Counted from the stretch's first letter, positions 122-45,070 are shown. The stretch is DNA of 48,832 nucleotides from an uncultured Candidatus Saccharibacteria bacterium (GCA_964567205.1 CAZMKW010000001.1:1-48832); one strand, 5' to 3'. Numbers and translations are program-made. The notes: a model not told the origin generated them from the sequence alone.

Positions 122-152
122 TAAAAAGGAGTAACTCTTGCGAATTACTCCT
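122..152 (-). terminator. Intrinsic terminator of the acyltransferase cassette
   Basis: On the minus strand AGGAGTAA/TTACTCCT form an 8-bp stem followed by TTTTT. The stem overlaps the stop codon at 151-153. Confidence 0.65.
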
Positions 153-912
153 ATGTTGTACGATCCGCTAAAGCCAACATGGCATTAGCGATTACTATTG
201 TAAGTTTAGCCCGCGTCATCGCCTCCCAACCAACGGGGGGCTCAAACCAACTATACTTCACGATGACAGGTTCCCGGCCAAAATGAGGCCAAGAGAATAA
301 TGGCTTACGAGACTTAAGAACAATCTTGCCCGCTTCGGTCCAGACGAGCAAAATCTTAAGATTGCCTGCGCCTATCATGTGGCACAACCAAGCAACGGAT
401 GAGGTAGGAAGGCGGATTTTTTTTCCACCAGGGCTTATCATAAAATCCTTCCCAGTACACGTTCGGCCCGGTTCCAATGGATGTATTATTGCGCCACGGT
501 CTACTAGCACATTGCGCATAGCTCTTGCTCCGACGCCAGACCCGTTTGCTGTTTCGCGGTTAATAAATATCGCCCTAGGCTTCATAAGTATGCCTAACCA
601 CATTTTTTTGAAATTGCGACGGCACATTGTAAACCAGGGGGTAGCCGTGAATGGATGCCTCAACCATTGTTTTGCCCAAAGCAATGGAACTAGAAAAATC
701 TCGAACATACAATCAAATAGGTCTGGATGATTGTATATTACAAGCATTCCCGGCTCCAACGGAGGCAATCCTTTGTAATTGTCTATCTGGATTCTCCCTC
801 CGCAATAGAGTAACAGAAACAGAAGGAGAAGTGGGACGCCAACACCGTACATTACGGCCAGAATCCAGGCACTTACCAGAAAGCCGATAACGAGCTTCTT
901 TGGCTTTTTCAT
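151..912 (-). CDS. Putative lysophospholipid (PlsC/LPLAT-family) acyltransferase, membrane anchored
   Basis: 253-aa ORF with an N-terminal hydrophobic segment. It carries an HX4D motif (YNHPDLFD) and a downstream EPGRT resembling PlsC motif III. An AAGGAA RBS precedes the ATG. The gene is visibly GC-richer than the flanks. Confidence 0.55.
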   Translation of the reverse strand: MKKPKKLVIGFLVSAWILAVMYGVGVPLLLLFLLLYCGGRIQIDNYKGLPPLEPGMLVIYNHPDLFDCMFEIFLVPLLWAKQWLRHPFTATPWFTMCRRNFKKMWLGILMKPRAIFINRETANGSGVGARAMRNVLVDRGAIIHPLEPGRTCTGKDFMISPGGKKIRLPTSSVAWLCHMIGAGNLKILLVWTEAGKIVLKSRKPLFSWPHFGREPVIVKYSWFEPPVGWEAMTRAKLTIVIANAMLALADRTT

Positions 913-969
913 GTTGTAATTCCTTTCTTAACAACACTCTCTCCGTAGAATGTGAATGAACACTTTTGT

Positions 970-998
970 ATTATCTTATAAAAAACAACTTATGTCAA
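970..998 (-). promoter_or_regulatory. Sigma-70-like promoter for the 151..912 gene
   Basis: Minus strand reads TTGACA (998-993), a 17-nt spacer, then GATAAT (975-970). Confidence 0.5.
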
Positions 999-1011
999 CG
1001 TTGCGACTAAC

Positions 1012-1040
1012 AAAAAAACATGACTTGCTGACCATGTTTT
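1012..1040 (-). terminator. Intrinsic terminator downstream of mraY
   Basis: AAAACATG/CATGTTTT form an 8-bp stem with a 10-nt loop. A run of 7 T follows on the minus strand. Confidence 0.6.
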
Positions 1041-1063
1041 AATTAAAAAATTTTTGGAAAAAT

Positions 1064-2125
1064 TTATCTAAACAACCGCACGGCCACTCCAATGAAAGCT
1101 AATACTACGCCTATAATCCACGCGCGCATCGTAACTTTATATGACGGCCAACCAATTGCTTCAAAATGGTGGTGAATCGGTGTTGAAAGAAAAACTTTTT
1201 TCTTTCTGAATTTTTTAGACAAAAGCTGAATTATCACAGATAAAACTTCTATTACCAAAATTCCGCCAATTATCGGCACAACATAAACCGAATCTGTAAG
1301 AAAAGCCGTAACAGCCAGCACAGTTGTTAAGCCAAGTATGCCCGTCTCTCCCATATAAAACCTGGCAGGTGGAACATTAAACCATAAAAAAGCAAAAAGG
1401 GTTCCCGTAATAACCGCGCAAAAAGCCGCCAAATCAATCTTTCCTAAAGAAAAAGCTATGACCGTAAACGCTCCAAAAATCGACGCGAAAGTTCCGCCAG
1501 CCAATCCATCTAAGCCATCAACCACTCCTCCGGACCAACAGGCTAGTGTTGCTAAAATAAATAAAGGGATATACCAGAATCCGATAGAAACGTCTCCTAG
1601 AAAAGGGATATAAATCATATCCCATCCTAATTTTTGGTAAAACCAGATGCTTCCAACCAAACCGATTATGACTACCAATATTAAACGTTTTCTAAATCGC
1701 ATTCCGCCACCAATGTATTTTCCGCCACCACCAACAGCTAAAATATCGTCTGCCAAACCCACAATAGATGCAACAACCAAAGTAAAAAGTGGGAGCCAGG
1801 TTTGACTTCTTGATAAAAAGTTAAACTGTGCTATCCACGAATCTGGAAAAATTAAAGATAAGACAAAAAATAAAAAAATTATAAAAACAACCGTTATCCA
1901 TATAAGCAACCCACCCATGCGCGGAGTGCTCACCTCTTTCTCTTTATGTAAACCATTAAAAACAACCGCGTCTTCACCCGAGATCGCCTTCTGCCTTGCT
2001 GTTTTTTTCCAAAGTTTATGCTTATACAAAAAATTAGTTAGCAACGGGCACCAAAAAAAGGCGACAATTGAAGCTATGGCTGCAAGACTAAAAACTTTAA
2101 TAACGTTAAAAGCAATATCTGTCAT
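1064..2125 (-). CDS. mraY: Phospho-N-acetylmuramoyl-pentapeptide transferase
   Basis: 353-aa polytopic membrane ORF with the typical MraY layout and motifs (PRMGG, GLADD, DGLDGLA, HHHFE). Confidence 0.95.
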   Translation of the reverse strand: MTDIAFNVIKVFSLAAIASIVAFFWCPLLTNFLYKHKLWKKTARQKAISGEDAVVFNGLHKEKEVSTPRMGGLLIWITVVFIIFLFFVLSLIFPDSWIAQFNFLSRSQTWLPLFTLVVASIVGLADDILAVGGGGKYIGGGMRFRKRLILVVIIGLVGSIWFYQKLGWDMIYIPFLGDVSIGFWYIPLFILATLACWSGGVVDGLDGLAGGTFASIFGAFTVIAFSLGKIDLAAFCAVITGTLFAFLWFNVPPARFYMGETGILGLTTVLAVTAFLTDSVYVVPIIGGILVIEVLSVIIQLLSKKFRKKKVFLSTPIHHHFEAIGWPSYKVTMRAWIIGVVLAFIGVAVRLFR

Positions 2126-2126
2126 A

Positions 2127-3056
2127 TTATTTGCATATTACGCCAGTACAACTGATTAATTTTTGCATTTCTAAAAACCTGTCGTCGGCGCCTAAAATTA
2201 TATTTATTAAATAATCACTATTTTCCGGATTATTTAGCACCAAAAGTAAACAACCATTAGCTTCAATTGTAAAACCCGTTTTACTGAATACTACATTTGG
2301 GAGCTGTCCCAAAAGTTCGTCTGTGTTTTCTACGCTTCCAAAATAAGGGACATAAAACTCCTTAACTTTACTTATATCCGCTATTTTTGGGTAATTTTTT
2401 AAAATATATTCTGCGAGCATTTCTAGCTCTCTAGCTGTAGAAATATTTTCCGAACTCAAGCCGGTTGGATCCACAAAAAAAGTATTTTTTAAACCTATCT
2501 CCTCAGATTTTTGATTCATCAAAGCTACAAATTCCTTCTCTCCTATTAACTCAGATAAAGCATAGGCCGACTTATTACTAGACCTAACAAGCATTAAGTC
2601 TAAAAAACTTTCTACTGGCATTGAATCTCCTAATTCTACATCTTCCTTCATTGGATCCTGCGCATCAGCGACTTCACTAACCGTTATAGTGTCTGATAAA
2701 TTATAATTATCTAACACAATGATTGCCGTCATTAATTTGGTTAGGCTGGCAATAGGTAATTTTTTATCAGAGAATTTATTAAAAATAACTTTGCGAGAAC
2801 CAGAAAGATTGCTTTCAACAGATATTGCTGATTCTGCGACCACCTCTGTTTCGTCAGCCGGTTTAATATTATCCTGCGTCATATCCTGAGCTGAAACATT
2901 CTGCAAGCCACCAGAAATGTCTCCCAAGGCAACACCCCCATCTTGACCATTTAAGGGATGCACTAAAACCCACCTTATGCCAGAAAACATATACATAAAA
3001 ACCACCAAAAAAACAAATGATAATAAAAATCCTCCGATGGCGCGTTTTAAATTCAT
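2127..3056 (-). CDS. D-alanyl-D-alanine carboxypeptidase (S11 family), membrane anchored
   Basis: SxxK (ASLTKLMT), SxN (RSSNKS) and KTG (SKTGFT) motifs follow an N-terminal TM segment. The start overlaps the aspS stop (TAATG). Confidence 0.85.
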   Translation of the reverse strand: MNLKRAIGGFLLSFVFLVVFMYMFSGIRWVLVHPLNGQDGGVALGDISGGLQNVSAQDMTQDNIKPADETEVVAESAISVESNLSGSRKVIFNKFSDKKLPIASLTKLMTAIIVLDNYNLSDTITVSEVADAQDPMKEDVELGDSMPVESFLDLMLVRSSNKSAYALSELIGEKEFVALMNQKSEEIGLKNTFFVDPTGLSSENISTARELEMLAEYILKNYPKIADISKVKEFYVPYFGSVENTDELLGQLPNVVFSKTGFTIEANGCLLLVLNNPENSDYLINIILGADDRFLEMQKLISCTGVICK

Positions 3057-4480
3057 TATTTCTTTTTTTCTCCTTTTTCTTTTATTACGCTAATATGAAG
3101 CTCCTTAAGCTGTTTTTTATCAATTTCCGAGGGGGCGTGCATCATAAAGTCTCGTCCGTCTCCGGTTTTTGGAAAAGCAATCACTTCTCTTATATTTGGT
3201 TCGCCCAACAATAAAGCAAAAATCCTATCTAAACCCCAAGCAATTCCTCCATGAGGAGGAGCGCCGTATTTAAAAGCCTCCATCATGTGTCCAAATTTTT
3301 CTTGTATGACGTCTTTTTTATATCCCATTATTTCAAAAACTTTTTCCAAAGCTTCCGGACGATGATTTCTAATCGACCCTCCACCAATTTCAAAACCATT
3401 TAAAACAACATCATATTGACTTGTTAAAATATTCTCAATATTTTTTTGTTTCATCAAATCTTCGCTGAACTCAGGCTTAGCGGCCGAAAATGGGTTATGC
3501 GTGAAGGTCCATTTCTTTTCGTCGTTCTTTTCAAAAAACGGGAAATCGACCACCCAACAAAATGCTAAAAGATTTTTATCATCAGGGGACCCTTCGGGTC
3601 GTTCCCTTATATCGGGCCTGTCTGTTTTATATTTTGCCATCGCCTCTTTATAAGATATCCTTGGAAATGGAATTTTTTGAATCTTTTTTTCGGGAAATAA
3701 GTTTTGCACTATTAAAATTAAAAGGCGTTCGGTAAGCCCCATAACGTCTTCCTGTTCAACAAAGCTCATTTCCAGATCGAGCTGAGTGAATTCCGGTTGT
3801 CTATCCCCTCTTGGATCTTCGTCTCTCAAACATTTTGCAATCTGAAAATATTTTTCAATACCGGCAACCATTAACAACTGCTTATATTGTTGCGGGGACT
3901 GCGGAAGAGCATAAAATTGGCCTGCGTTTAACCTTGATGGCACGATATAATCTCTTGCGCCTTCGGGCGTTGATTTTGTCAAAATAGGGGTTTCAATCTC
4001 GGCAAAACCCTCTTTATCCATAAAGTCGCGGATAAATTTTATAACCTTATGTCGCACAATAAAATTATTTTTCAACCTTTGCCTTCTTAAGTCTAAATAT
4101 CTATATTTCATTCTTGTCTCCTCACCAATATCATAACCGTCCCCTTCGATAGATAGTGGTATGGCCTCGGACTCGGACAAAACTTTTAAACTTTCCACCG
4201 AAAGCTCAACCTGCCCGGTCTCTATCTTTGGGTTAATCATATTTTCCGGTCTTTTTACTACTTGTCCTCTTATTTCCACAACCCATTCAGGTCTTATAGT
4301 TTGAGCCAATTCATAAGCCTCCTTATTTGAGGGCACAAAAACAACCTGCATAATTCCACTTATGTCCCGCAAATCGATAAATAAAATCTTTCCATGAACC
4401 CTTCTTGTGTCAACCCATCCGCAAACCCTAACTTCTTCTCCAATATGTTTTGCCGTATCTTTTACTAAAAATCTTTGCAT
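3056..4480 (-). CDS. aspS: Aspartyl-tRNA synthetase, bacterial-type core without the GAD insertion domain
   Basis: N-terminal OB-fold sequence plus FYALPQSPQQYKQLLM and RDEDPRGDRQPEFTQLDLEMSF class II motifs. The ORF is only 474 aa. The sequence passes from DRPDIR almost directly to WVVDFPFFE. Confidence 0.93.
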   Translation of the reverse strand: MQRFLVKDTAKHIGEEVRVCGWVDTRRVHGKILFIDLRDISGIMQVVFVPSNKEAYELAQTIRPEWVVEIRGQVVKRPENMINPKIETGQVELSVESLKVLSESEAIPLSIEGDGYDIGEETRMKYRYLDLRRQRLKNNFIVRHKVIKFIRDFMDKEGFAEIETPILTKSTPEGARDYIVPSRLNAGQFYALPQSPQQYKQLLMVAGIEKYFQIAKCLRDEDPRGDRQPEFTQLDLEMSFVEQEDVMGLTERLLILIVQNLFPEKKIQKIPFPRISYKEAMAKYKTDRPDIRERPEGSPDDKNLLAFCWVVDFPFFEKNDEKKWTFTHNPFSAAKPEFSEDLMKQKNIENILTSQYDVVLNGFEIGGGSIRNHRPEALEKVFEIMGYKKDVIQEKFGHMMEAFKYGAPPHGGIAWGLDRIFALLLGEPNIREVIAFPKTGDGRDFMMHAPSEIDKKQLKELHISVIKEKGEKKK

Positions 4481-4507
4481 ATATTAAAAATTTAAAAAAT
4501 ATAAAAT

Positions 4508-5140
4508 TTATTTACTAAACCGAAAACTCGAAATTATCTTATCTAATATTTTCGGCTGGCTCTCGTTTGTTGCCACGCAGTCGTCATAATTTTTTTTCTG
4601 ATCAGTATCACCCGGCTCTAACGGCAAATAAAAATCGCAATTTACAGTGGTTACAGCAAAATACGCGACAATACATTTCTGATTTTTAACCGTGGCATAA
4701 TAGTAATAGTTGAATGCATGTCCGGTTGCCGAGTCTCCAGTTGCATACAAGCAATATTGAATATTATTTATTGTTTGCTTCTGCCCATCGACATCCCAAT
4801 ATCCCGGAGACGATATATTATTTTCTATTGCTTTTGAGCTTCCTCCTTGTTCAGATAAATTTTTTGCAACAATACTACTTATATTTGGACATTGATCGGG
4901 AAAAACATCGTAATTGCAGTCTCCCATAAGGATTTGTGGCTGTTGATTTTGGTCAAAAAATCCGTCCGGATATTTAAACTCAAAACCATAGTCGACGCTT
5001 TGGCGCGTTTCCCAGTCCGACGTTCCATCTTGCCGAACTTGGTTTTTTTGTGATAAAAATTCCTGGTACAAAAAATATCCTGCAAGAGCAGACACAATAA
5101 TAATTATAAAAATAGCGAATATAGATTTATTCTTCATCAT
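4508..5140 (-). CDS. Hypothetical membrane-anchored, Cys-containing exported protein
   Basis: 210-aa ORF with an N-terminal TM/signal anchor and no recognised domain. It fills the gap between aspS and tyrS. Confidence 0.55.
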   Translation of the reverse strand: MMKNKSIFAIFIIIIVSALAGYFLYQEFLSQKNQVRQDGTSDWETRQSVDYGFEFKYPDGFFDQNQQPQILMGDCNYDVFPDQCPNISSIVAKNLSEQGGSSKAIENNISSPGYWDVDGQKQTINNIQYCLYATGDSATGHAFNYYYYATVKNQKCIVAYFAVTTVNCDFYLPLEPGDTDQKKNYDDCVATNESQPKILDKIISSFRFSK

Positions 5141-5141
5141 C

Positions 5142-6341
5142 CTATTCTAAAATGATCTTTATAAATTTTCTGCTTCCAACTTTTACTATCATTCCATTTT
5201 CTAATGTTATCTCTTCTCTCCAATCACCAACTCTTGATTCTTCATTATTCTTTATAATGTAAACTCCGCCACCATCAACAAGTCTTTTGGCTTCATTTTT
5301 TGATTGGGCTAACTTACTGTCGCACAATAAATCGAGGATCGAGTATTTTTCTTTAGACGTGCTAAACATCGGCACATCTGTTGGTAACTCTTTATTTCTA
5401 AAAACCCTGTCAAACTCTTCTTCAGCTTTCTGTGCAACTTTTTCTCCGTGGTACATTTTCACAATTTCCTTTGCTAATTTGGCTTTCTGGTCTCTTGGAT
5501 TTATCGCGCTTTGATTTTTTTCAATTTCAGTAAGCGGAACTCTCGTGCAAAGTTCGAAATACCGGAGGATTAGATTATCCGGAAGAGACATAATTCTACC
5601 GTAAACATCAGAAGGCTTATCAGTAAGAGCAATATAATTATCCAGAGATTTGCTCATTTTTTCCTTGCCGTCCAGGCCCTCAAGCAGAGGAATCGTAATA
5701 ACGTCTTGTGGTTCTTGGCCGTATCTTTTTTGGATCTGCCTACCCATTAATATATTAAATTTTTGATCGGTCCCACCAATTTCCACGTCAGCTTTCAGGG
5801 CCACAGAGTCATATCCTTGCAAAACAGGATATAAAAATTCTTCGACAGTGAAATCTTTGTCTTCCGCAAGTCGCTTTTTAAAATCTTCGCGGGCAGAAAC
5901 TTGGCCATAGGTAACCTTTGTCGCCAACTGCATCATTTCCGTTAAATTCATCTTGTTCCACCATTCCGAATTATAGCGAATTTCCACTTTGCGCAAATTT
6001 AGAATCAATCCTGCTTGTTTTTTATAAGTTTTCATATTCTCCTTTATTTGCCTCTCTGTCATCGGCTCACGCTTAGAGGTCCTTCCAGTTGGGTCCCCAA
6101 TTCTTGCTGTAAAATCCCCTATTAAAAAAATGATCTGATGCCCTACGTCCTGGAGCTCTTTCAGCTTCCATAGGCAAACAGAGTGCCCTAAATGTAAAAC
6201 AGACCCGGTGGGATCAATCCCAAACTTTATTCTAAGCTTCTCCCCTTTTACCAGCCGCTCTTCTAAGTGGTCTTCTACAATAACTTCTTGTGCGCCTCTG
6301 GTCAGTATCTCTTTAGCTTTTTGACTATTGATTGTTACCAT
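5142..6341 (-). CDS. tyrS: Tyrosyl-tRNA synthetase
   Basis: HIGH-type motif (HLGH), KMSKS, and a C-terminal S4-like region (AKRLVDGGGVYI). Confidence 0.95.
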   Translation of the reverse strand: MVTINSQKAKEILTRGAQEVIVEDHLEERLVKGEKLRIKFGIDPTGSVLHLGHSVCLWKLKELQDVGHQIIFLIGDFTARIGDPTGRTSKREPMTERQIKENMKTYKKQAGLILNLRKVEIRYNSEWWNKMNLTEMMQLATKVTYGQVSAREDFKKRLAEDKDFTVEEFLYPVLQGYDSVALKADVEIGGTDQKFNILMGRQIQKRYGQEPQDVITIPLLEGLDGKEKMSKSLDNYIALTDKPSDVYGRIMSLPDNLILRYFELCTRVPLTEIEKNQSAINPRDQKAKLAKEIVKMYHGEKVAQKAEEEFDRVFRNKELPTDVPMFSTSKEKYSILDLLCDSKLAQSKNEAKRLVDGGGVYIIKNNEESRVGDWREEITLENGMIVKVGSRKFIKIILE

Positions 6342-6488
6342 AATTTTAGATCAAAAACATTATTAAATAATAGCAATTTTTGTAAAAAAAAGAAAGTGAT
6401 GTTTATACACTACTTTCCTTTACTCATTGCGACCCTCGTCCTCATCTCGCTGTCGATGATTTTACATTCATACATAAGTCGGCGACAC

Positions 6489-7793
6489 TTAAAACTTATC
6501 TGCAAGTTTATAAATATCACCCGCACCCATGATTATCAAAACCTCTACTGGACTCATACTGTCTTTAATAAAACCTTCTAGTTTTTGCAATGGGAGATAC
6601 CCGATATTTTCACGATTTATTTTTTTGACTAATTTCTCAGAGCTAACTTCGTTATTTATCGTTTTAGTTTCCCTACCGGCTACGTCATAAATATCAGTAA
6701 TGATTATTTTATCAATCGACACGGATCTGAATGTTTTAACGAAGTCATTAAATAAATAATACGTTCTTTGATGCTGATGTGGCTGGAAAATACACATTAT
6801 CTTTTTATTTGGATATTTTTCGCGGGTAGCTTTTAGAGTTGCTGAAATTTCGTTTGGATGATGACCGTAATCAGATACTATTGTTATTTCTTTACCATTT
6901 ACGTTTCCCGTTTTAACTTCAAACCTCCTCCATGTCCCCCGAAACTCCGAAAGAGCCCTTAATGAAATACTGTCGGGGATTGCTAGAATTCGCGCAACCT
7001 GCAAAGCGGCCAACGCGTTTGAAACATTGTGTTGTCCGGGAATTTTTAAAACTCTATTTAGCTTTTTTGCCTCCGGTTGTTTTAAAGAATAATTTTTAAT
7101 TTTAAATTTTACCTTTGAACTTGTAATTTTAACTTTTGAGTTTTTTTCATCGTCTTTATTAAAAACCAAAAACCCATTCATCGGAAGTCGCATAATAAAA
7201 CTCTTAAACGCTTTTTTCACGTTTGCAAAAGTCTTAAAATAATCCAAATGTTCTTTATCAATATTTGTAATAACTTCTATTTTAGGCGAGTAATATAAAA
7301 ATGAAGAATCGTATTCGCACGCCTCTATGACCAAAAATTTGCCTTTGCCCGACCTAAAATTTGAACCGCCAAACTCTTTTAATTTAGTTCCCACAATAAC
7401 TGTGGGGTCAAGTCCGGCTTCCACTAAAATTAAACCGATCATAGCAGTTGTCGTGCTTTTACCGTGTGCTCCCGCCACTGCAATTGTATAATATTCTTTT
7501 GTTAGGTCACCCAAAGCTTCTGGATACGATTTAGTTTTCAGTTTATAGCCGGTAGCTTGCAACAGCTCAGGATTATCTTTTTTAATGGCGGGGCTATATA
7601 CCACCAAATCTAAGTCTTGTTTTATATTTTCAGCGGAATTTCCAATAAAAACTTTTATGCCCTTTCTAGCCACAAAATCTGTGATTTCCGAAGCAACCAA
7701 ATCAGACCCCGAGACCTCGTGTCCTTTTGAAAGATAATACTGCGCCAGTGCACTAACCCCTATTCCCCCAATACCTATTAAATGAATTCTCAT
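6489..7793 (-). CDS. murC: UDP-N-acetylmuramate--L-alanine ligase
   Basis: Begins MRIHLIGIGGIGVSALA, with the GAHGKSTT P-loop and Mur ligase body. The start was moved to the internal ATG at 7793, which overlaps the upstream stop (ATGA). The 22 codons upstream look like read-through of that ORF. Confidence 0.92.
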   Translation of the reverse strand: MRIHLIGIGGIGVSALAQYYLSKGHEVSGSDLVASEITDFVARKGIKVFIGNSAENIKQDLDLVVYSPAIKKDNPELLQATGYKLKTKSYPEALGDLTKEYYTIAVAGAHGKSTTTAMIGLILVEAGLDPTVIVGTKLKEFGGSNFRSGKGKFLVIEACEYDSSFLYYSPKIEVITNIDKEHLDYFKTFANVKKAFKSFIMRLPMNGFLVFNKDDEKNSKVKITSSKVKFKIKNYSLKQPEAKKLNRVLKIPGQHNVSNALAALQVARILAIPDSISLRALSEFRGTWRRFEVKTGNVNGKEITIVSDYGHHPNEISATLKATREKYPNKKIMCIFQPHQHQRTYYLFNDFVKTFRSVSIDKIIITDIYDVAGRETKTINNEVSSEKLVKKINRENIGYLPLQKLEGFIKDSMSPVEVLIIMGAGDIYKLADKF

Positions 7794-7993
7794 TTTGATT
7801 GTTTTATTCTGCCTTTCTGTTCTTTTGAACACTCGGAACATATAACATGAGTTACGCATCCTTCTGTTTTTTTATAAAACCCTGACTCCCCCATATCTTT
7901 TCCGCACCACCCGCAAACATTTCTGACCGGAAATTCTTTTTCCGGCTCGGGCCGTTCTGGTTCTCTAGGATCTTTGTTTTCTATGTTCTTCAT
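7790..7993 (-). CDS. Small zinc-ribbon-like protein, translationally coupled to murC
   Basis: 67 aa with two CxxC pairs (CGWC, CSEC) and an acidic Pro-rich N-terminus. ATGA overlap with murC. Confidence 0.6.
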   Translation of the reverse strand: MKNIENKDPREPERPEPEKEFPVRNVCGWCGKDMGESGFYKKTEGCVTHVICSECSKEQKGRIKQSK

Positions 7994-7997
7994 GTTT

Positions 7998-8567
7998 TTA
8001 ATTTTTTAACTGGTGCGATTCTAAAATTGTGTAAGCTGGGCCACCCTTTTTCATTTCCGACTCCATAACTTCAATTGATTCTACGGTGAAAATTAAATCC
8101 AAATTTTCGTTTATTTCCGGCCTTTCTTCGGGCTCAATTACCCGCCACTCCATGGCGCTAATTCTGGCTAAAGTAATATGTGGCGCGAATACTCTGTTTT
8201 CCGGAACAAAACGAATTTTTTCCGTTAAAGACATTTCCAAATCTTCGCGAAGCCCCGACAACTTTTCTGACTTATCGCCCTGTGCCCAAACAAATTTTGG
8301 TGGTATCTTTTTCGGTGGAGCATATAAAACTTGGCTTATATTCAAAGAAAAAGAATTGTGCCTTTCTGCAACCTCTTTTACAATCAAACAAACTTCGCCT
8401 ATTTCTTCTTCTGTAAGCGCGCCCAAAAATTCCAGAGTAATATGCAGATTGTCTTTTGGCGTCCATTTGGCAGGCAAACCTGACCATTTTTCGGCATAAG
8501 AAAACAGCTCTCTTTTTATGTCTCCAGGCAAATTTATAGCTACAAAAACTCTATGTCTTTTTTCCAT
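7998..8567 (-). CDS. thpR: RNA 2',3'-cyclic phosphodiesterase (2H phosphoesterase, ThpR/LigT family)
   Basis: Two HxT motifs (LHITLEFLG and PHITLARI) at the expected spacing in a 189-aa protein. Confidence 0.85.
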   Translation of the reverse strand: MEKRHRVFVAINLPGDIKRELFSYAEKWSGLPAKWTPKDNLHITLEFLGALTEEEIGEVCLIVKEVAERHNSFSLNISQVLYAPPKKIPPKFVWAQGDKSEKLSGLREDLEMSLTEKIRFVPENRVFAPHITLARISAMEWRVIEPEERPEINENLDLIFTVESIEVMESEMKKGGPAYTILESHQLKN

Positions 8568-8623
8568 AATTATTGGTTACAGATATAACTTATCCTATCA
8601 AAAAAATGCCTCCTTAACAATAT

Positions 8624-8652
8624 TTGACAAGACGAAATTAGAATGTTAATAA
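8624..8652 (+). promoter_or_regulatory. Sigma-70-like promoter for 8683..9099
   Basis: TTGACA (8624-8629), 17-nt spacer, TAATAA (8647-8652). Confidence 0.5.
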
Positions 8653-8682
8653 TAAGCTGGCACATTTCATAGGGAGACTAAC

Positions 8683-9099
8683 GTGAAAAAAGAAGACGAA
8701 AAAAAAATTGAGGTAAACGACTTCGTAATTGTGGTCATTCCCGACCACAACCCGCCCATCCGTTGTTGGGGCCTAGTTACGAGCCGATTTCCAAGCGGAA
8801 ACCTGAACGTGCAAATCGAAGACGCGATGACTGGAGATCTCGCCGTCATTATCGCTAAGCCGGAAAACCTTCTTTTTGTCCGACGAACGCAGGGAGAATT
8901 TTCTACGCCCTCGCTGGCGTTTGCGTGGTACAACAGCGAATTAGCCCTGGAAAACACGCTCTATAGGATTCTAAACCGAGAAACAAGGGCCCTACTCAGG
9001 ATAGAGCGAAAAATAGCAAGAAGAAGCGACGAACGCCGGCAAAGCTGGCTTCAGCTCTTCCATTTAACGCGCAAACCCAAGTCCCCGCCCGGATCTTAA
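8683..9099 (+). CDS. Hypothetical protein (GC-richer cassette)
   Basis: 138-aa ORF with a GTG start 5 nt after an AGGGAGA RBS. It has its own promoter and terminator and no recognised motif. The overlapping minus ORF 8667..8957 lacks such signals. Confidence 0.6.
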   Translation: MKKEDEKKIEVNDFVIVVIPDHNPPIRCWGLVTSRFPSGNLNVQIEDAMTGDLAVIIAKPENLLFVRRTQGEFSTPSLAFAWYNSELALENTLYRILNRETRALLRIERKIARRSDERRQSWLQLFHLTRKPKSPPGS

Positions 9100-9117
9100 G
9101 ATTCGGGCTATTTTTTT
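9088..9117 (+). terminator. Intrinsic terminator of 8683..9099
   Basis: CCCGGATC/GATTCGGG stem (one G-U pair), TTAA loop, then a T7 tract. The stem overlaps the stop codon. Confidence 0.6.
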
Positions 9118-9141
9118 ACAAAAATATGATAGAATAAGAAT

Positions 9142-9816
9142 ATGGCAAACAAAGAAATTTCTAAAATTTTTCAGGAAACAATAAGGCTCTTGGAAATAAA
9201 AGGAGACAAAGCTTTAAGTTATAAGATAAGGGCTTACAAAAACGCCATACATATTTTAGATAATCTAAAAATTGACATTAGCGATATTTATAAAAATAAG
9301 GGATTAAAAGGAATAAGAGAGCTGGGCATAGGCGAAAAGAATGCAAAAAAAATTGAGGAGTATATAAATAAAGATAAAATCACTGAATTTGATGAGTTAA
9401 ATGAGGAAACTGCCATACAAAACATCATAGCTTATTTTTTTCAGTCAAAAGGTTTAGGCTTGCAAGAATTGAAAGAAAATGCTAAAAAGAGAAAGATAAT
9501 ATATTCTAGATTCACAAAACCTGCAAAACAATTACTGGAATTAGCCGGTTCGGTTGATAAGGCAAAGGAAGCCATAAACAAAGTAGCTCAATGGGCAAAC
9601 ACCAGAAAATTAGATTACGCCATTGAAACTGTTTTTAAGAAATGGCTGGAATTGGACAGATTAAAACCAAAAGAGATAGTTAAAAAACCGTTTTACAGAG
9701 GAGATCCGATGATTTGGTCAGAAACCAAAAAAAAATGGTTTGTTATTTCAAAATACGGCGAATGGCTAGAGTTCGCCGATAAACAATCCACAATTGAGTG
9801 GAGAGTTATTTCTTGA
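9142..9816 (+). CDS. Helix-hairpin-helix protein with a Pol X/Pol beta 8-kDa-like N-terminal domain and unknown C-terminal domain
   Basis: The N-terminus (NKEISKIFQETIRLLEIKGDKALSYKIRAYKNAIHIL...LKGIRELGIGEKNAKKIEEYI) matches the pattern of family X polymerase N-terminal HhH domains. No polymerase palm motifs follow. Confidence 0.55.
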   Translation: MANKEISKIFQETIRLLEIKGDKALSYKIRAYKNAIHILDNLKIDISDIYKNKGLKGIRELGIGEKNAKKIEEYINKDKITEFDELNEETAIQNIIAYFFQSKGLGLQELKENAKKRKIIYSRFTKPAKQLLELAGSVDKAKEAINKVAQWANTRKLDYAIETVFKKWLELDRLKPKEIVKKPFYRGDPMIWSETKKKWFVISKYGEWLEFADKQSTIEWRVIS

Positions 9817-9909
9817 ATCTGGTATTCGGAAGTTAGAATTTAGAATAGAGTGAAGAATTCAAAATTCAAAATTCTATTCCAGCTTCCAGATACTAAATTC
9901 CAAATTCAA

Positions 9910-10479
9910 ATGTTAACACATACAGATATAAAAAAAGGAGTTGAATTTATTTACGAGGGGCAGCCTTGGGTTGTTTTGGATTCGGCCGCTATGAAAATGG
10001 CCCAAAGAAGGCCCGTCATACAAAGTAAAATAAAAAATCTTATAGATGGCAAGGTTCAACAGGTAAACTTTCAACAAGGCGACATGTTTGAAGAAGCAAA
10101 TTTAGAAAAAAAAGATATTAAATTTATTTACCAGAGTAAGGGTGAGTATGTTTTCTGCGAACCCAACGACCCCTCAAAAAGATTTTCTTTTACAGAGGCG
10201 CAAATTGGCACACAAGCAAAATATCTACGACCCAATGAAATTGTTGTCGGAATTATTTTCGAAGAAAAAATAATTAACTTTAAGCTTCCAATTAAAGTGC
10301 AGTTGAAAGTTAAGGAATCCGCCGCAGGAATCAAGGGAGATCGAGCTCAAGCAGGAACAAAAGAAGCAGTATTAGAATCTGGTGCCGTAATACAGGTTCC
10401 CCTATTTATTGAACAAGGAGATATAATTGAAATTAACACTGAAACCGGAACATACGTAAAACGCGCCGAAAAAGAGTAA
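9910..10479 (+). CDS. efp: Elongation factor P
   Basis: 189 aa counted from the internal ATG (MLTHTDIKKGVEFIYEGQPW...), a typical EF-P length and three-domain sequence pattern. The 20-codon GTG extension lies in low-complexity repeats. Confidence 0.9.
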   Translation: MLTHTDIKKGVEFIYEGQPWVVLDSAAMKMAQRRPVIQSKIKNLIDGKVQQVNFQQGDMFEEANLEKKDIKFIYQSKGEYVFCEPNDPSKRFSFTEAQIGTQAKYLRPNEIVVGIIFEEKIINFKLPIKVQLKVKESAAGIKGDRAQAGTKEAVLESGAVIQVPLFIEQGDIIEINTETGTYVKRAEKE

Positions 10480-10489
10480 CTAAAAAATT

Positions 10490-10514
10490 AAAAGAGGGGC
10501 TAATCCCCTCTTTT
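10490..10514. terminator. Bidirectional intrinsic terminator between convergent efp and the VirD4-like gene
   Basis: AAAAGAGGGG-CTAA-TCCCCTCTTTT, with A and T tracts on either side. Confidence 0.7.
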
Positions 10515-10517
10515 AAT

Positions 10518-13019: not shown

Positions 13020-13457
13020 TTAAGTTTTTTTATCGTCGTCGGTATCGTCGTCGGAGGGTTTCATAATTTTTTTGTAAAAACCTTCTTGGGCTAAAGTGTC
13101 GTGCAAAACATCCAAGAGATATGGCTCATTCATTTTTTTTGCGACCTGTATTGCAAAAACAACGCCCTTTTCTCTGGCGACCCGCAAAAGATGTTCTATT
13201 TTCTGTCCCTCTCCTAAAAATTCTATTTTTTGAGCTTTTTTCTCCGCCTCTTTTTTAGTACTATCGTCCAACTCCATCATTTCTATTTCTCTTCTTAACT
13301 TCGCTGACACAATTTTACTGTCTGATAAAACCTCTCTTCTCTCCGGAACTTTTTCCTGTTGCTCAACTCGCCCGGGCTGTTCGCCCGAATAAGGAGTTTT
13401 TTCCGGAGACACTTTAGATCTTTCAATCTCTTCCTGTTTGTCTTTGTTGTCTGCCAT
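13020..13457 (-). CDS. Hypothetical acidic protein
   Basis: 145-aa charged ORF ending 7 nt before the start of the VirD4-like gene. No recognised motif. Confidence 0.55.
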   Translation of the reverse strand: MADNKDKQEEIERSKVSPEKTPYSGEQPGRVEQQEKVPERREVLSDSKIVSAKLRREIEMMELDDSTKKEAEKKAQKIEFLGEGQKIEHLLRVAREKGVVFAIQVAKKMNEPYLLDVLHDTLAQEGFYKKIMKPSDDDTDDDKKT

Positions 13458-13461
13458 CTTC

Positions 13462-13489
13462 AGTTGGTAGTTAGTAGTTGGTAGTTGGT
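13462..13489. repeat. Tandem heptamer repeat (AGTTGGT AGTTAGT AGTTGGT AGTTGGT)
   Basis: Four consecutive 7-mers read directly, immediately upstream of the 13020..13457 start. Confidence 0.85.
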
Positions 13490-13541
13490 AAAAATCTTTT
13501 AAAGAATCTACAAACTATTAACTATAAACTACTCTCTCGTA

Positions 13542-30226: not shown

Positions 30227-30236
30227 CATTAAACGA

Positions 30237-31094: not shown

Positions 31095-31117
31095 GCAAAA
31101 AATTTGGCACGGTCAAA

Positions 31118-31146: not shown

Positions 31147-31210
31147 ACAAAATTGTTAGTTTGTTCTTTGAGTTGGATCGTTCCCATACACACATTGAAA
31201 GGAGTAAACA

Positions 31211-31513: not shown

Positions 31514-31531
31514 CACGAAGGGAATCGTAAA

Positions 31532-31843: not shown

Positions 31844-31854
31844 TACATCACTAT

Positions 31855-31881
31855 AGCCTTGCGACCCAGCAAGGCTTTTTC
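31855..31881 (+). terminator. Intrinsic terminator closing the plus-strand island
   Basis: AGCCTTGC-GACCCA-GCAAGGCT followed by TTTTT. Confidence 0.8.
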
Positions 31882-33510: not shown

Positions 33511-35817
33511 TTATTTTTTGTACGGAGTGTTGACCCAAAGATACAAATTGTTTTCGCCATATACAGAATCGTCTCCGTACTTGCTTATCCTAATTTTGTA
33601 ATCGTTACCCGGCTCCAATCCAACAATCAGAGGCGTGCCGTACCAACCATTATTGGTGACTTTTTTTGCAATGGTTCGCAACAACTTCCCTGAACGATAG
33701 AGATCTATTTTAACATAAGGAATTTTCGGATTTCCCGCCGATGTCCATTCAATAGCAAACTCTCCCCAATTTCCTCCACTGGGAGGTGAAAATAGGATGG
33801 TTTTTTCCGGATTGGGCGAGATAACAGTAATAGATTGCTTCGGAGAAATGATGGGCGGAGAAGATTCCTGGTTAGTATTTCCGGATACAATACTAAAATA
33901 ATCGCTTTCATCTACAGCTGTGCTTGTATTGGAATTAATAAGATGAGTATAATTTGGGATATATCTGCAGCCAATGGCATAGTCATATATAGAATGCGCT
34001 GCTATAATAATTTTATATTTTCCTGGAGTAATATAAACGGGCGAATTTCTCTGGCCCGGCTCGAAAGTATCTAAAACGAAAGTAAATTGCCCAACGTCTG
34101 CCCGCACATCATAGTAATTCCCAGTATTATAATCTTGATTCTGCAGATACCACATTTTTCCTGATTCATCTGCTAGGATGATTTTAAAACCATCGGCTTC
34201 TGTTACCGGATTTTCCCACGTTTTAGTCGAGGGAATTTTTCTATCCATCCATCTAATAGTATATTTTTGCCCCAATTTCCATTCTTCCCCTCCACTGGGA
34301 TACAGTAGTTCTAAAAGTGGCTGCTCATGATCTGAGATAGTAAAGTAATTATCAGACTCATCTAATTTTTCCAAGCCCCACCGCCCTTCGTGGAGTTTAG
34401 TCATAAGATTATTGGGGTTGCTAAATTCATAGGGGCCGGGTAATCTAAACGCCCATACTTTATAAAGGCCCTTGCCAAAAGGAGCAAGTGTTCCTTCACA
34501 ATCCGAATTTTCAAATGGACTCAACTTCGGACTTATCGACCAACGCCACGACTTATTGGCAATTAGGACAAGCGAATTTTTAGAAAAAGTCATATTCTCG
34601 ATGCATTGAGGATTAGAATCGCCTTGAAAATTATATTTATATAGCTTAAATACAACCAAATCGGTACTAAACCCACGCGAATCCCATTTGATATCGTACG
34701 ATCCTCCTAAATGAAGTGTTTCTCCACCGTTTGGGTAAATAATATTTAAAAAATTTTCATAATTACAAGACACTATCTCTGAGGCTGGATGAGTTACTCC
34801 ACCCTTACAGTCCACCCCTCTTAAAGAACCGAAATAGGACTCGGGTGTTTTTCGATATGTCCACGCTCTAGTTTGCTGGCCGGAAGGAGGACACGTCACC
34901 GGACTCATAATTGAGGTCCAATTAAGTTCCGTACAGGGGGGGGCATATGTGCAAGATTGCGATAAAACCTGATTTCCGCTTGCACAACCGACAGGAAGGG
35001 AAGACTTTACAGTTCTTGTCTGGGTTCCGAAGGCAGAACAAACGCCCCAGTCAGAATAATTAAAGCTGGTGCAGGTTGCTATTTGAGGATTGCACGAAAC
35101 AATTTCTGAAGCGGGGTGGATTATTCCACCATCACAAGTTCCTATTTTTGTCCAAGTTCTAGTTTGTTGGCCAGAAGAAGGACAGGTTGATGGGTTTAAG
35201 GTTGAAATCCAATCACTCTCGGTACAATAAGAGTTATACGAACACGATTGATAAAGCACAGGGGTTCCACTAGTACAGCCGGGATAATAAGATGTGGGCA
35301 TTCTTGTTTGAACTCCGCTAGGTGAGCAAGCACTCCAGCTAGAATAATTAAAACTAGTGCAAGTTGTTGTCGTTTGGGTTGTTGGAGTTGTTTGCCCGCA
35401 TCCATACAGCGAATTCAACTTTTCTCTGGTTAACGGTCCAACATAACCGCTCTGGGGGGTAATTCCATATCTTGCCTGAAATTGAATAACGGCAGAAGAC
35501 GTGCCCTCATCATATGTGGTAGCGTTATCTAAACCATAAGAAATGTTTTGTTTTTGCAGGGCAGTATGCAGACTCACAACCTCGCTTGAACCAGAGTTTG
35601 CAAATCCTAAATTTTGATTGAATGTGTGACACCAGGTTTGCGTTGTGCCTTGCTGGGTAGCCAGCATCACTTGTAATTGGGCTGTTAATTGGGCGATTTG
35701 CGCCTGTATTTGAGCAATCAATGCTGAATTATCTACGGCTCGAGCTTCGACAAACCACGCAGAACAAAAAATTATTGACGCTAAAACGATCGATATTAAA
35801 AAATATTTTACTCTCAT
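33511..35817 (-). CDS. Large secreted protein: peptidoglycan-binding-like domain, duplicated Cys-rich TSP1-like modules, repeated beta-rich C-terminal domains
   Basis: Signal/TM segment at the N-terminus. A PG_binding_1-like segment follows (LHTALQK...IQFQARYGITPQSGYVGPLTREKL). Two module pairs then occur (TCTSFNYS[SD]W..CS..G.QTR and C..SGQQTR.W...C.GG..HPASEIVSCN). Three (Y)P.GGE/W-type repeats follow. Confidence 0.75.
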   Translation of the reverse strand: MRVKYFLISIVLASIIFCSAWFVEARAVDNSALIAQIQAQIAQLTAQLQVMLATQQGTTQTWCHTFNQNLGFANSGSSEVVSLHTALQKQNISYGLDNATTYDEGTSSAVIQFQARYGITPQSGYVGPLTREKLNSLYGCGQTTPTTQTTTTCTSFNYSSWSACSPSGVQTRMPTSYYPGCTSGTPVLYQSCSYNSYCTESDWISTLNPSTCPSSGQQTRTWTKIGTCDGGIIHPASEIVSCNPQIATCTSFNYSDWGVCSAFGTQTRTVKSSLPVGCASGNQVLSQSCTYAPPCTELNWTSIMSPVTCPPSGQQTRAWTYRKTPESYFGSLRGVDCKGGVTHPASEIVSCNYENFLNIIYPNGGETLHLGGSYDIKWDSRGFSTDLVVFKLYKYNFQGDSNPQCIENMTFSKNSLVLIANKSWRWSISPKLSPFENSDCEGTLAPFGKGLYKVWAFRLPGPYEFSNPNNLMTKLHEGRWGLEKLDESDNYFTISDHEQPLLELLYPSGGEEWKLGQKYTIRWMDRKIPSTKTWENPVTEADGFKIILADESGKMWYLQNQDYNTGNYYDVRADVGQFTFVLDTFEPGQRNSPVYITPGKYKIIIAAHSIYDYAIGCRYIPNYTHLINSNTSTAVDESDYFSIVSGNTNQESSPPIISPKQSITVISPNPEKTILFSPPSGGNWGEFAIEWTSAGNPKIPYVKIDLYRSGKLLRTIAKKVTNNGWYGTPLIVGLEPGNDYKIRISKYGDDSVYGENNLYLWVNTPYKK

Positions 35818-40632: not shown

Positions 40633-40710
40633 GGTCCCATCGTATAGCCTGGTCTAGTACGCATGGTTCTCATCCATGTAACATCGGTTCAAATCCGATT
40701 GGGACCGCCA
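40633..40710 (+). tRNA. tRNA-Glu (anticodon CTC) with encoded CCA
   Basis: GGTCCCA acceptor, GTAT/GTAC D stem, CATGG-TTCTCAT-CCATG anticodon arm, ATCGG-TTCAAAT-CCGAT T arm, TGGGACC, then G and CCA. Confidence 0.93.
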
Positions 40711-44308: not shown

Positions 44309-44357
44309 CGTCAGTCATTTCATTCCTTGCGAGATATACACTCATATTGGTAGTTTT

Positions 44358-44382
44358 CCCACAGTTATCCACTTTTGCCCAC
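44358..44382 (-). promoter_or_regulatory. Putative MraZ operator: three GTGGR boxes with exact 10-nt periodicity
   Basis: Minus strand reads GTGGG-CAAAA-GTGGA-TAACT-GTGGG, immediately downstream of the candidate -10 element. Confidence 0.6.
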
Positions 44383-44391
44383 TTCGTCTTA

Positions 44392-44421
44392 TTTATAGCC
44401 CTTTTCATAGCATCAGGTCAA
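44392..44421 (-). promoter_or_regulatory. Candidate dcw (Pmra-like) promoter
   Basis: Minus strand reads TTGACC (44421-44416), an 18-nt spacer, then TATAAA (44397-44392). Confidence 0.45.
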
Positions 44422-44548
44422 CACCTTACCCCAAATGCCCGTTTTAGTCGTAAATCCACATATTTTTGCACTAGTTATCCACACCCCACTAAAGGTCTTT
44501 TTATATAAAAACATACTTTTGCACAGACAAGCTTATTTTCGTCGACAC

Positions 44549-44580
44549 AAAAAAGCCTCGCGTAAACTAATACGCGAGGC
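44549..44580 (-). terminator. Intrinsic terminator of the two-gene zinc-ribbon cassette
   Basis: Minus strand reads GCCTCGCG-TATTAGTTTA-CGCGAGGC followed by T6. Confidence 0.8.
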
Positions 44581-44608
44581 ATGATCTTATCTTCATACGT
44601 CACCCTTT

Positions 44609-44806
44609 CTATGTTGTAGAATTAGAAGACGTAGAGATTACTCTTTCTTTGGGCCAAAGTTCGCTCTGGGCCATGTCTGCGATTTTTTTGACGACATGCC
44701 CATGGCAACAGTGTTCTGTGTCTCTCAGCTCGGTTACATCGTAATACCCACGACACACCTCGCAGTAGTATGTCCCCACATGATTTTGTGCTTTGTTGTC
44801 GGCCAT
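44609..44806 (-). CDS. Small Cys/His-rich (zinc-ribbon-like) protein
   Basis: 65 aa with CEVC and HCCHGH. A GGAGAG RBS lies inside the end of the upstream ORF. GC-richer than the backbone. Confidence 0.6.
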   Translation of the reverse strand: MADNKAQNHVGTYYCEVCRGYYDVTELRDTEHCCHGHVVKKIADMAQSELWPKERVISTSSNSTT

Positions 44807-44807
44807 C

Positions 44808-45041
44808 TCACTCTCCTTCCTTAAAAATCACGGCGCCATTCACGAAACGCGCGCTCATTTTGGTGCCGTGTTCCGTATATAATTGTCCGCAAGTCTCGCA
44901 GGCGTATCCGATACAATCGCCTACGGGAATTTCTCTGACAAAATCAATCTCGCCCAAGCAACTCTGCTTTACGCACTTTGTGTTTTGTAAAATAATCTTG
45001 TTCATTTCTTGTCCCTTTCCTTGTAGTTGTGAATGAGCCAC
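44808..45041 (-). CDS. Small zinc-ribbon-like protein (start uncertain: GTG at 45041 or ATG at 45005)
   Basis: CVKQSC and CETCG pairs. The GTG start has a GGAGGA RBS that is sequestered in the upstream hairpin. The ATG start has GGAAAGGGA upstream. Confidence 0.55.
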   Translation of the reverse strand: MAHSQLQGKGQEMNKIILQNTKCVKQSCLGEIDFVREIPVGDCIGYACETCGQLYTEHGTKMSARFVNGAVIFKEGE

Positions 45042-45042
45042 G

Positions 45043-45070
45043 AAAAAAATCCTCCGTCAGGAGGATTTTT
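45043..45070 (-). terminator. Terminator-like hairpin that also contains the Shine-Dalgarno of the downstream ORF
   Basis: Minus strand reads AAAAATCCTCC-TGAC-GGAGGATTTTT followed by TT, then C and the GTG start codon. Confidence 0.55.

Follow-up and report, generated by a model that had tools for sequence, protein, structure and literature searches.

This report concerns a 48,832-nucleotide stretch of DNA (hereafter the window), which is the entire contig C1 of the metagenome-assembled genome (MAG) G000, and the GC-rich genes that are scattered along it between AT-rich operons. The host is Candidatus Staskawiczbacteria, an ultra-small bacterium of the Patescibacteria, or candidate phyla radiation (CPR), and its MAG comprises 559 kb in 44 contigs, is 86% complete and has a GC content of 37.9%. 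We consider it probable that the GC-rich loci are the flexible part of the chromosome, carried at transfer hotspots that are free of mobile elements: an AT-rich operon backbone keeps its order, and a few gaps between operons would act as hotspots of gain, loss, swap and fast divergence.

Base composition was computed for open reading frames (ORFs) called greedily across the whole of G000, with background medians taken from ORFs of at least 100 aa, and an ORF was counted as GC-rich when its robust z exceeded 2 both for GC and for GC at third codon positions (GC3). The backbone has a median GC of 0.374 (robust standard deviation 0.033) and a median GC3 of 0.333 (0.039) genome-wide; the flagged loci range over GC 0.45-0.53 and GC3 0.44-0.57, except for ORF 28866-29099 and for the GC3 of ORF 31532-31843. 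Nine of the ten flagged ORFs exceed the threshold in both measures, ORF 31532-31843 failing on GC3 (0.394). The first-pass annotation had judged these loci GC-richer by eye and had proposed a quantitative profile as a check. This profile shows a large deviation and no cassette with backbone-like codon usage, and the visual impression was borne out by the computed values, apart from the small ORF 28866-29099, which at a GC of 0.372 is not GC-rich. Over the genome as a whole, both measures mark 72 of 608 ORFs (6.8% of bases) as outliers, so the window samples a genome-wide pattern. High expression was considered as a source of GC-rich codons and rejected, as the GC3 of ribosomal protein L21 and EF-P, the two genes compared, is only 0.27-0.30. 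The flagged loci are laid out as follows.

127-998, minus strand: cassette 1; promoter-like site 998-970 (TTGACA-17-GATAAT), coding sequence 912-151 (253 aa; GC 0.470, GC3 0.484), terminator 152-127.
8624-9108, plus strand: cassette 2, between the LigT and HHH_8 genes; promoter-like site 8624-8653, coding sequence 8683-9099 (138 aa; GC 0.499, GC3 0.547), terminator 9087-9108.
16867-17216, plus strand: cassette 3, antisense between the MacB permease and ABC ATPase genes; promoter-like site 16867-16895, coding sequence 16950-17216 (ORF 16902-17216, of which 16950 is the ATG; GC 0.454, GC3 0.495).
20236-21885, minus strand: cassette 4; promoter 21885-21856 (TTGACA-17-TAATTT), hairpin in the 5' untranslated region (5'UTR), coding sequence 21778-20279 for the 499-aa PurC-PurE protein (ORF 20279-21835, true start 21778; GC 0.530, GC3 0.570, the extreme of the set), terminator 20255-20236.
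28823-30783, no single strand: sigma segment; doubtful ORF 28866-29099, promoter 29151-29178, sigma factor 29207-30226 (GC 0.454, GC3 0.438), AT-rich ORF 30325-30744.
30785-31089, plus strand: cassette 6; promoter 30785-30812 (TTGACA-16-TAGCAT), coding sequence 30869-31069 (66 aa; GC 0.498, GC3 0.507), terminator 31068-31089.
31104-31876, plus strand: two small ORFs, 31211-31513 (WG-repeat-like; GC 0.446, GC3 0.465) and 31532-31843 (GC 0.465, GC3 0.394); promoter-like sites 31104-31146, terminator 31855-31876.
44555-45274, minus strand: cassette 8, between a ClpB-like gene and the dcw (mraZ) promoter; promoter 45274-45247, CxxC zinc-ribbon ORFs 45041-44808 (GC 0.449, GC3 0.474) and 44806-44609 (GC 0.465, GC3 0.500), terminator 44580-44555.

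Near-consensus promoters and terminators had been reported at most of these cassettes, and the search for signals agrees with this. The window contains five sites that match the sigma-70 consensus at 11 of 12 positions, four of them directly upstream of cassettes (998-970, 8624-8653, 29151-29178 and 45274-45247), and the fifth (94-67) lies ahead of a backbone peptidase gene just past the left end of the window. The promoter of cassette 6 has a perfect TTGACA box within a 10-of-12 match, most units are closed by one of the terminator-like hairpins listed above, and a Shine-Dalgarno-like sequence precedes each small cassette ORF. The zinc-ribbon pair had been thought to lack a convincing promoter; this has to be revised, as TTGACA-16-TATTAT is found at 45274-45247, about 200 nt upstream of the first ORF.

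Gene by gene, the window was compared with five members of the genus (G004, G013, G017, G023 and G012, the last being the closest relative) and two metagenome relatives (L137 and L138). Backbone order is kept across all seven, with protein identities mostly of 45-96%; between G000 and G012 the backbone proteins are 54-96% identical, mostly above 75%, and four-fold sites have an identity of about 0.5, for a rough synonymous distance of 0.8. Nucleotide homology between these two genomes stops sharply at the cassette edges (blastn). Seven junctions were followed in up to seven relatives, where the cargo differs, the allele has diverged or the gap is empty; they include the following.

LigT / HHH_8: 8683-9099 in the window; an allele of 45-47% identity in G012; an unrelated GC-rich stretch in G023; a gap of about 40-60 bp in G004, G013, G017 and L138.
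MacB / ABC ATPase: 16950-17216 in the window; an allele of 36-38% identity in G012; an unrelated small GC-rich ORF in G023; empty in G004, G013 and G017.
PD-(D/E)XK / methyltransferase and the next gap: PurC-PurE in the window; changing GC-rich sets in relatives (PurC-PurE, PurB, GuaA, PyrB, GNAT).
MraZ / ClpB: the zinc-ribbon pair in the window; 337 bp in G012; 2.2 kb of other GC-rich ORFs in G023, by eye fragments of LeuA/HMGL type.
RmuC / P-type ATPase: 33511-35817, minus strand, a variable 768-aa surface-type protein with Pfam PG_binding_1 and Ig-like domains, in the window; nothing in G012 (where the genes abut), G023 and L138; AT-rich genes in G013.
Indels relative to G012: Pif1-CYTH 26480-28763; sigma island 28823-30783; two small ORFs about 31100-31850.
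26439-28763, no single strand: Pif1-CYTH segment, AT-rich and variable; Pif1 helicase 26686-28086 (plus strand), CYTH 28095-28652 (minus strand).

The three indels account for the distance between the gene w26167 and L21, which is 5.5 kb in G000 versus 0.5 kb in G012. On either side of the Pif1-CYTH segment lies a copy of a promoter region, the two forming a 54-nt direct repeat (26439-26492 and 28693-28746, 78% identical, TTGAAA-17-TAAAGT). That the segment is missing from this place in G012 fits its insertion or deletion by recombination between the two promoter copies. Pif1 is found in about 13 of 25 other genus genomes, the set used for all genus-wide counts below, at 56-79% identity, and CYTH in about 10 at roughly 58-74%, and the segment is rearranged backbone-type DNA. 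Together with ORF 30325-30744, these genes show that variable genes of AT-rich, backbone-like composition exist as well. The gene of the 768-aa surface-type protein has an overall GC of 0.413, with 400-nt windows at about 34600-35800 reaching 0.425-0.470. Like the Pif1-CYTH segment, it had not been singled out in the first-pass annotation.

The association of GC-richness with limited sharing is strong. Within the window, none of the 9 GC-rich ORFs has a G012 counterpart of at least 60% identity, compared with 31 of the 39 others (Fisher p = 1.4e-5). When 757 kb of G012 were searched with every G000 ORF, 50 of 72 GC-rich ORFs lacked a counterpart, versus 108 of 536 others (p = 1e-16); with the ORFs limited to 100 aa or more, counterparts of 60% identity or higher were present for 4/43 GC-rich and 333/459 other ORFs. 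Where a counterpart exists, its median identity is 64% for the GC-rich class versus 82%. Moreover, the share of ORFs with a counterpart drops steadily from 0.87 at a GC3 of 0.30-0.35 to 0.18 at a GC3 above 0.55, a graded fall that is predicted by the decay of foreign composition with age. Genus-wide, the six small cassette ORFs match in none or one of the genomes, ORF 30869-31069 in none; of eight small AT-rich ORFs taken as controls, four are widespread, being found in nearly all or at any rate most genomes, a further two match in about 5-8 genomes, and the last two have no match.

The sigma factor at 29207-30226 is the clearest single case. It carries the domains PF04542 (Sigma70_r2, residues 153-215) and PF04545 (r4, residues 268-316), all of its NCBIfam matches staying below the equivalog cut-offs. 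Within the genus it is found in one genome only (G019, 39% identity), and the segment is absent from G012. Thousands of homologues were retrieved; all six that bear an organism name are planctomycete sequences of 46-53% identity, and in the tree the three CPR copies group together as a single long-branched clade (100/99) within the planctomycete-named sequences. Two non-CPR homologues sit in contigs of 63-65% GC with a GC3 of 0.85-0.89, compared with 0.44 here and 0.33 for the host, and codon positions 1 and 2 lag behind the third position in the drift to host composition. In the relatives L141 and L143, the flanking Pif1 and 30325-type genes are 68-94% identical, the sigma factor only 53-58%. 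Judged from these comparisons, the gene fits one old transfer from a planctomycete-like donor of 63-65% GC, followed by fast evolution and partial drift. It alone, and not PurC-PurE, shows the features expected of a xenolog undergoing amelioration.

As the first-pass annotation had stated, no integrase, transposase or att duplication accompanies the cassettes: Pfam finds no integrase or transposase and PHROGs no phage mobility family among the window proteins, and no repeats or att-like duplications bracket the GC-rich units in the window, the 54-nt repeat around the AT-rich Pif1-CYTH segment being the sole case. Phage and defence libraries returned only generic matches to the sigma factor, and a scan of viral contigs, of limited reach, gave no close relatives of three cassette proteins. 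It is nevertheless conceivable that the cassettes belong to a mobile system, as its cargo or its remnants, and that the enzyme of this system is encoded elsewhere; integron-like cassettes, miniature transposons or a degraded prophage would be examples. The discrete single-gene units at recurrent sites would agree with this, as would the 54-nt repeat and a genome-wide inverted-repeat element, CCCCGTTAGAR, beside the zinc-ribbon cassette. Apart from the missing enzymes, bracketing repeats and phage relatives, the idea is opposed by the cassettes themselves, most of which have a promoter-like site of their own and which occur in both orientations, unlike integron cassettes, and by the inverted-repeat element, which was tried as a cassette border and shows no significant link to GC-rich ORFs (odds ratio about 2, p = 0.09-0.27). 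We therefore regard such a system as very improbable.

The element itself occurs in 24 copies in G000 (0-6 in shuffled sequences), and its 10-nt core CCCCGTTAGA occurs 46 times in G012. Most copies form inverted pairs about 35-120 nt apart (window 45169-45390; C2 11220-11349; C4 27638-27764; C9 11333-11436; C12 16250-16376; C13 3806-3904 and 14992-15111; C15 5720-5846; C44 328-450), each pair forming a long terminal stem whose enclosed sequence varies; in the C9 pair, the enclosed sequence can by eye be taken for a tRNA gene that leaves about 5 nt free on either side. The element resembles a family of processing stems or small RNAs, or else a miniature repeat element. Besides, a LAGLIDADG endonuclease and a phage-integrase-family gene, possibly of Xer type, lie in the same genome about 5-6.6 kb past the left end of the window (L209 15942-17507), where they adjoin no studied cassette.

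If the loci are indeed mobile-element-free transfer hotspots, DNA would enter through the competence machinery; G000 encodes DprA and RecA, and ComEC occurs in 24 of the 25 other genus genomes. Integration might proceed by RecA-dependent recombination in the conserved flanks or by homology-assisted illegitimate recombination, and spread or replacement within the genus could use the same flanks. Many hotspot genes would have entered from GC-richer genomes and would now stand at various stages of drift to 37% GC, as documented for the sigma factor and presumed for the others; for the orphan small ORFs in particular, we infer a foreign origin. In a compact genome, presumably only self-expressing insertions that spare the neighbouring operons survive, which would leave monocistronic units with their own promoter and terminator. 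Up to 13% of Patescibacteria genomes is reported to consist of genomic islands and transferred genes, exchanged mostly among Patescibacteria (PMC12455944). The architecture seen here agrees with the prevalence of transfer and of competence genes reported for the phylum in that study, and mobile-element-free hotspots diversified by recombination in the flanking core genes are described as commoner in transformable species (PMC5635113).

Several observations weigh against the transfer-hotspot reading. Four cassettes (151-912, 8683-9099, 16902-17216 and 30869-31069) are in place in G012, where they are 34-47% identical or partly alignable between flanks of 71-92% identity; being orthologous in place, they are residents and not new arrivals. 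None of the orphan ORFs could be assigned a donor. ComEC was not found in the 86%-complete G000 MAG itself. Flanking and non-flanking genes are alike in a crude test, with few genes, for extra recombination at hotspots (p = 0.82), and GC-rich ORFs are only weakly enriched at contig ends (odds ratio 1.4-1.7, p = 0.05-0.3). The remaining difficulty is PurC-PurE. Its best homologue is only 64% identical among the matches listed, so no recent donor is in sight; its closest copy (63%) is in L137, one of the closest backbone relatives; its four-fold GC is 0.50-0.67 in every lineage, whereas the backbone genes examined range over about 0.25-0.57 (mostly 0.3-0.45); and the gene does not fit a simple drift of GC after transfer.

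The PurC-PurE ORF of 518 aa combines PF01259 (SAICAR_synt, residues 39-293) with PF00731 (AIRC, residues 359-478). The best 120 relatives listed from a search of 5.8 billion proteins are 45-64% identical, all named ones belong to Patescibacteria, and all but three contain both domains. At least five relatives (G004, G013, G021, L137 and L138) carry the gene between the same PD-(D/E)XK and methyltransferase genes, at 52-63% identity, and a first search detected related sequence in 12/24 genus genomes. A Colwellbacteria contig carries PurC-PurE about 2.3 kb upstream of the genes for a membrane-fusion protein, an ABC ATPase and MacB, and the same genes also follow it in the window, past the PD-(D/E)XK gene. 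Four-fold sites are near saturation (identity 0.34 versus 0.27 by chance). PurC-PurE is an old, position-conserved Patescibacteria gene, not a recent arrival, and a two-state decay estimate suggests that a single old transfer followed by neutral drift cannot yield its composition. Its GC-richness may instead stem from repeated replacement, selection or GC-biased gene conversion.

Replacement was seen once. In G012, the same promoter and 5'UTR are followed by a different, shorter PurC-PurE, so divergent that the G000 protein does not detect it, that carries both the SAICAR_synt and the AIRC domain; this is a xenologous replacement with edges near the start codon and the terminator. The G012 gene (L132, contig C19, about 4355-5722) shares the ATG and continues for 10 codons to an in-frame TAG at codon 11, and no in-frame ATG, GTG or TTG occurs before position 4562. 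The TAG may be a sequencing error or be read through, or the gene may be a pseudogene or have an unusual start. The conserved leader was also considered as a riboswitch. It is conserved between G000 and G012 only, not across the genus, which points to ordinary shared ancestry, and the idea was dropped.

The first-pass annotation had taken the loci either for a mode of gene acquisition or for a class of accessory genes. Lineage-variable genes at backbone gaps, and a sigma factor derived from another phylum, support this view; on age, however, it was too simple, because several units are resident and fast-evolving, namely the four cassettes in place in G012, and one, PurC-PurE, is ancient.

PurC-PurE is also what the serious rival rests on, namely that GC-richness is made or kept in place by GC-biased gene conversion, or by selection for GC-rich codons or mRNA, and marks a compartment rather than an ancestry. 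This gene is old and position-conserved with near-saturated synonymous sites, and it is still GC-rich in every lineage; in an unrelated Patescibacteria contig with a backbone of 46-48% GC, PurC-PurE and PurM likewise exceed the backbone by about 10 points. In addition, the G012 counterparts of G000 GC-rich genes are GC-rich too, including 8683-9099 and 151-912, which have strongly diverged in place yet are GC-rich in both genomes, and a higher GC3 has been reported for recombining bacterial genes (PMC4450053). On the other hand, backbone genes that flank the hotspots show no GC enrichment, the composition of the sigma factor is of donor type in decay, rarer sharing goes with a larger GC3 excess, and AT-rich variable genes occupy the same hotspots. 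Furthermore, the effects of gene conversion in bacteria are reported to amount to a few GC3 points, not 15-25. We consider maintenance in place unlikely, serious as it is. A stricter form of the idea, in which an AT-rich core under mutation pressure coexists with hotspot genes of any origin that are actively kept GC-rich by GC-biased gene conversion or transcript selection, appears to us rather improbable; its clearest case would be PurC-PurE together with PurB, a PurL-like protein, PurM, PyrB, PyrF and GuaA.

Some of these enzymes recur in the GC-rich class genome-wide, where the named functions are PurM, PyrF, a B12/radical-SAM enzyme and MazG, and by eye a large PurL-like protein. The nucleotide-synthesis genes for PurL-like, PurM, PyrF, PurB, PyrB and the C-terminal domain of GuaA are all GC-rich and patchy in the genus (G000 C17 247-5353 and C9 17212-18135; in relatives, L010 1969-3468 and 4700-5647, L014 16741-19274, L017 16092-17750). 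Their occurrence deserves attention because Patescibacteria are usually said to lack purine and pyrimidine synthesis pathways.

The small cassettes call for a different question, namely whether they encode proteins. Seven small ORFs have no family match, and the eighth, 31211-31513, has a weak match to Pfam WG_beta_rep and only repeat-level matches in the genus. The missing families could indicate chance ORFs or structured non-coding RNAs, the latter being conspicuous by their high GC in AT-rich genomes, all the more as GC is nearly flat over the three codon positions in 16902-17216 and 30869-31069, and as the ends of the unit 30785-31089 are better conserved than its middle: in G012 the promoter, 5'UTR and terminator of this cassette are about 84% or more identical, and the coding part is alignable over its first 35 or so residues only. 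We give this possibility very little credit. Rfam has no match in the islands, either at gathering thresholds or at E values up to 0.5, Shine-Dalgarno-like sequences stand before the ORFs, and the zinc-ribbon ORFs carry paired CxxC motifs. ORF 8683-9099 has protein-level relatives, some of them multi-repeat proteins, and only 13 clusters match among 1.84 billion representatives; its one match in the genus is the G012 allele, where the ORF is intact and gaps are mostly multiples of three. The differences from G012 are dispersed both in this ORF and in 151-912, and together with the in-frame gaps they indicate fast divergence of real coding genes.

The other small products have few relatives. 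Cassette 3 encodes a membrane helix with a CxxC...CxC zinc-ribbon-like tail and has its only genus match in G012. ORF 31532-31843 and the zinc-ribbon ORFs of cassette 8 have no match in the 25 genus genomes, and both 31211-31513 and 31532-31843 are absent from G012. The 151-912 protein is more widespread, with homologues of 27-44% identity in 11 of the 25; its G012 copy, in place beside MraY (91%), is 34% identical. It has no Pfam or NCBIfam match itself, but the HX4D motif is present as HPDLFD and four of six database relatives carry PF01553 (Acyltransferase), so the protein appears acyltransferase-like and is a candidate of the PlsC type.

An artefact was also weighed, since the MAG is made up of 44 contigs, is 86% complete and includes contigs that are GC-richer overall (C13, C17 and C36), so the mosaic might come from chimeric assembly or mis-binned GC-rich DNA. 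The islands, however, lie inside contigs and have sharp edges at gene borders. Wherever assemblies of four other samples overlap the window, they match it at 100% identity; two of them span positions 1-10912 with two cassettes, and one runs past the left end into the backbone. The same architecture is seen in every relative examined, that is, in part or the whole of five genus genomes and in metagenome contigs, and the probability of an artefact is practically negligible.

Among known systems, the closest parallel to the hotspots proposed here is that of Oliveira et al. (2017), who described mobile-element-free hotspots. Common to both are variable genes confined to few core-gene intervals, rapid turnover, no integrase or transposase, and a lineage with competence and recombination genes. 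Here, however, a unit of 0.2-1.6 kb mostly holds just one gene, the genome measures about 0.6-0.8 Mb, species of a genus rather than strains of a species are compared, and our crude test on few genes gave no significant excess of recombination in the flanks. The islands of groundwater Patescibacteria (PMC12455944) concern the same phylum; regions of atypical composition were ascribed there to transfer, with some donors from other phyla and competence as the proposed route. They were predicted by IslandViewer and MetaCHIP across MAGs, and a term search of that study shows no mention of hotspots, purine genes or integrases. Relative to it, the junction-by-junction synteny and the single-gene cassette structure presented here go further. 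Amelioration of horizontally acquired genes, reportedly set out by Lawrence and Ochman in 1997, is matched by the GC3 of the sigma factor, intermediate between donor and host, and by the low sharing of the most GC-rich genes, whereas PurC-PurE, whose synonymous divergence is near saturation, still has a high GC3. Integron gene cassettes are likewise small, mostly single-gene units that pile up at defined places, but IntI, attI, attC and common inverted repeats at the ends are all absent here, promoter-like sites are mostly the cassettes' own, and both strands and many junctions are used. Classical genomic islands differ as well, as the present units are of 0.2-1.6 kb without integrase or flanking repeats, and the only tRNA gene (40633-40710) adjoins none. 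Finally, PAICS, the animal purine-pathway fusion of SAICAR synthetase and AIR carboxylase, similarly joins a PurC domain at the N-terminus and a PurE-fold domain at the C-terminus in a single chain; the PurC-PurE protein studied here belongs to a bacterial family widespread in Patescibacteria.

The backbone between the cassettes consists of ordinary housekeeping and envelope genes, according to Pfam searches with the window proteins. Wall and translation functions include MraY, a D-Ala-D-Ala carboxypeptidase, class II (Asp/Lys/Asn-type) and Tyr-type aminoacyl-tRNA synthetases and a Mur ligase; export functions include two MacB permeases, an ABC ATPase and a membrane-fusion protein. LigT, an HHH_8 protein, EF-P and a coupling-type ATPase of type IV secretion systems are also encoded, as are a PD-(D/E)XK nuclease, a methyltransferase with a small-methyltransferase (MTS) domain, Maf, LD-carboxypeptidase, L21 and RmuC, and further a P-type ATPase, a Na/Ca exchanger, a permease, a PBP, MraW, MraZ and a ClpB-like ATPase. 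Several hotspots have genes of DNA/RNA repair or recombination type at their borders (LigT 7998-8567, HHH_8 9142-9816, PD-(D/E)XK 19505-20197, Pif1 26686-28086 and RmuC 32277-33326). The closeness of G012 relative to the other relatives varies along the backbone from -9 to +27 identity points: at 3056-4480, 5142-6341, 7998-8567, 13020-14171 and 18007-20197 it is no closer than distant relatives (-9 to 0), and at other backbone genes it is closer by +15 to +27, suggesting either a mosaic backbone through interspecies recombination or uneven evolutionary rates. The conserved edge of the cassette 8 junction is a backbone landmark as follows.

44353-44483, minus strand: dcw/mraZ promoter region with GTGGG / GTGGAT repeats.

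These 131 nt upstream of mraZ are 94% identical to G012, above the coding backbone, and 76% to G023. We take the GTGGG / GTGGAT repeats to be MraZ boxes, in line with general knowledge of mraZ promoters, and the region, in which they surround a TTGACC...TATAAA promoter, probably represents the dcw promoter together with operator boxes for MraZ.

Patescibacteria are generally regarded as dependent on hosts for nucleotides and as evolving mostly through gene loss. At the level of single genes, the contig reveals the sites and the manner in which such a genome continues to acquire genes, and the self-expressed cargo of its gaps includes a planctomycete-like sigma factor and a variable set of purine and pyrimidine enzymes. 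For practical purposes, a GC3 above about 0.45 on a 37% GC background may serve as a rule for recognising the flexible genome in these MAGs, and the contig possibly hints at the partners with which these cells exchange DNA. The finding reveals no new molecular system; it is a clean example of known phenomena, of which only coarse descriptions exist for this lineage, with one real puzzle, PurC-PurE, which provides a test case for whether base composition is shaped by more than mutation and ancestry.

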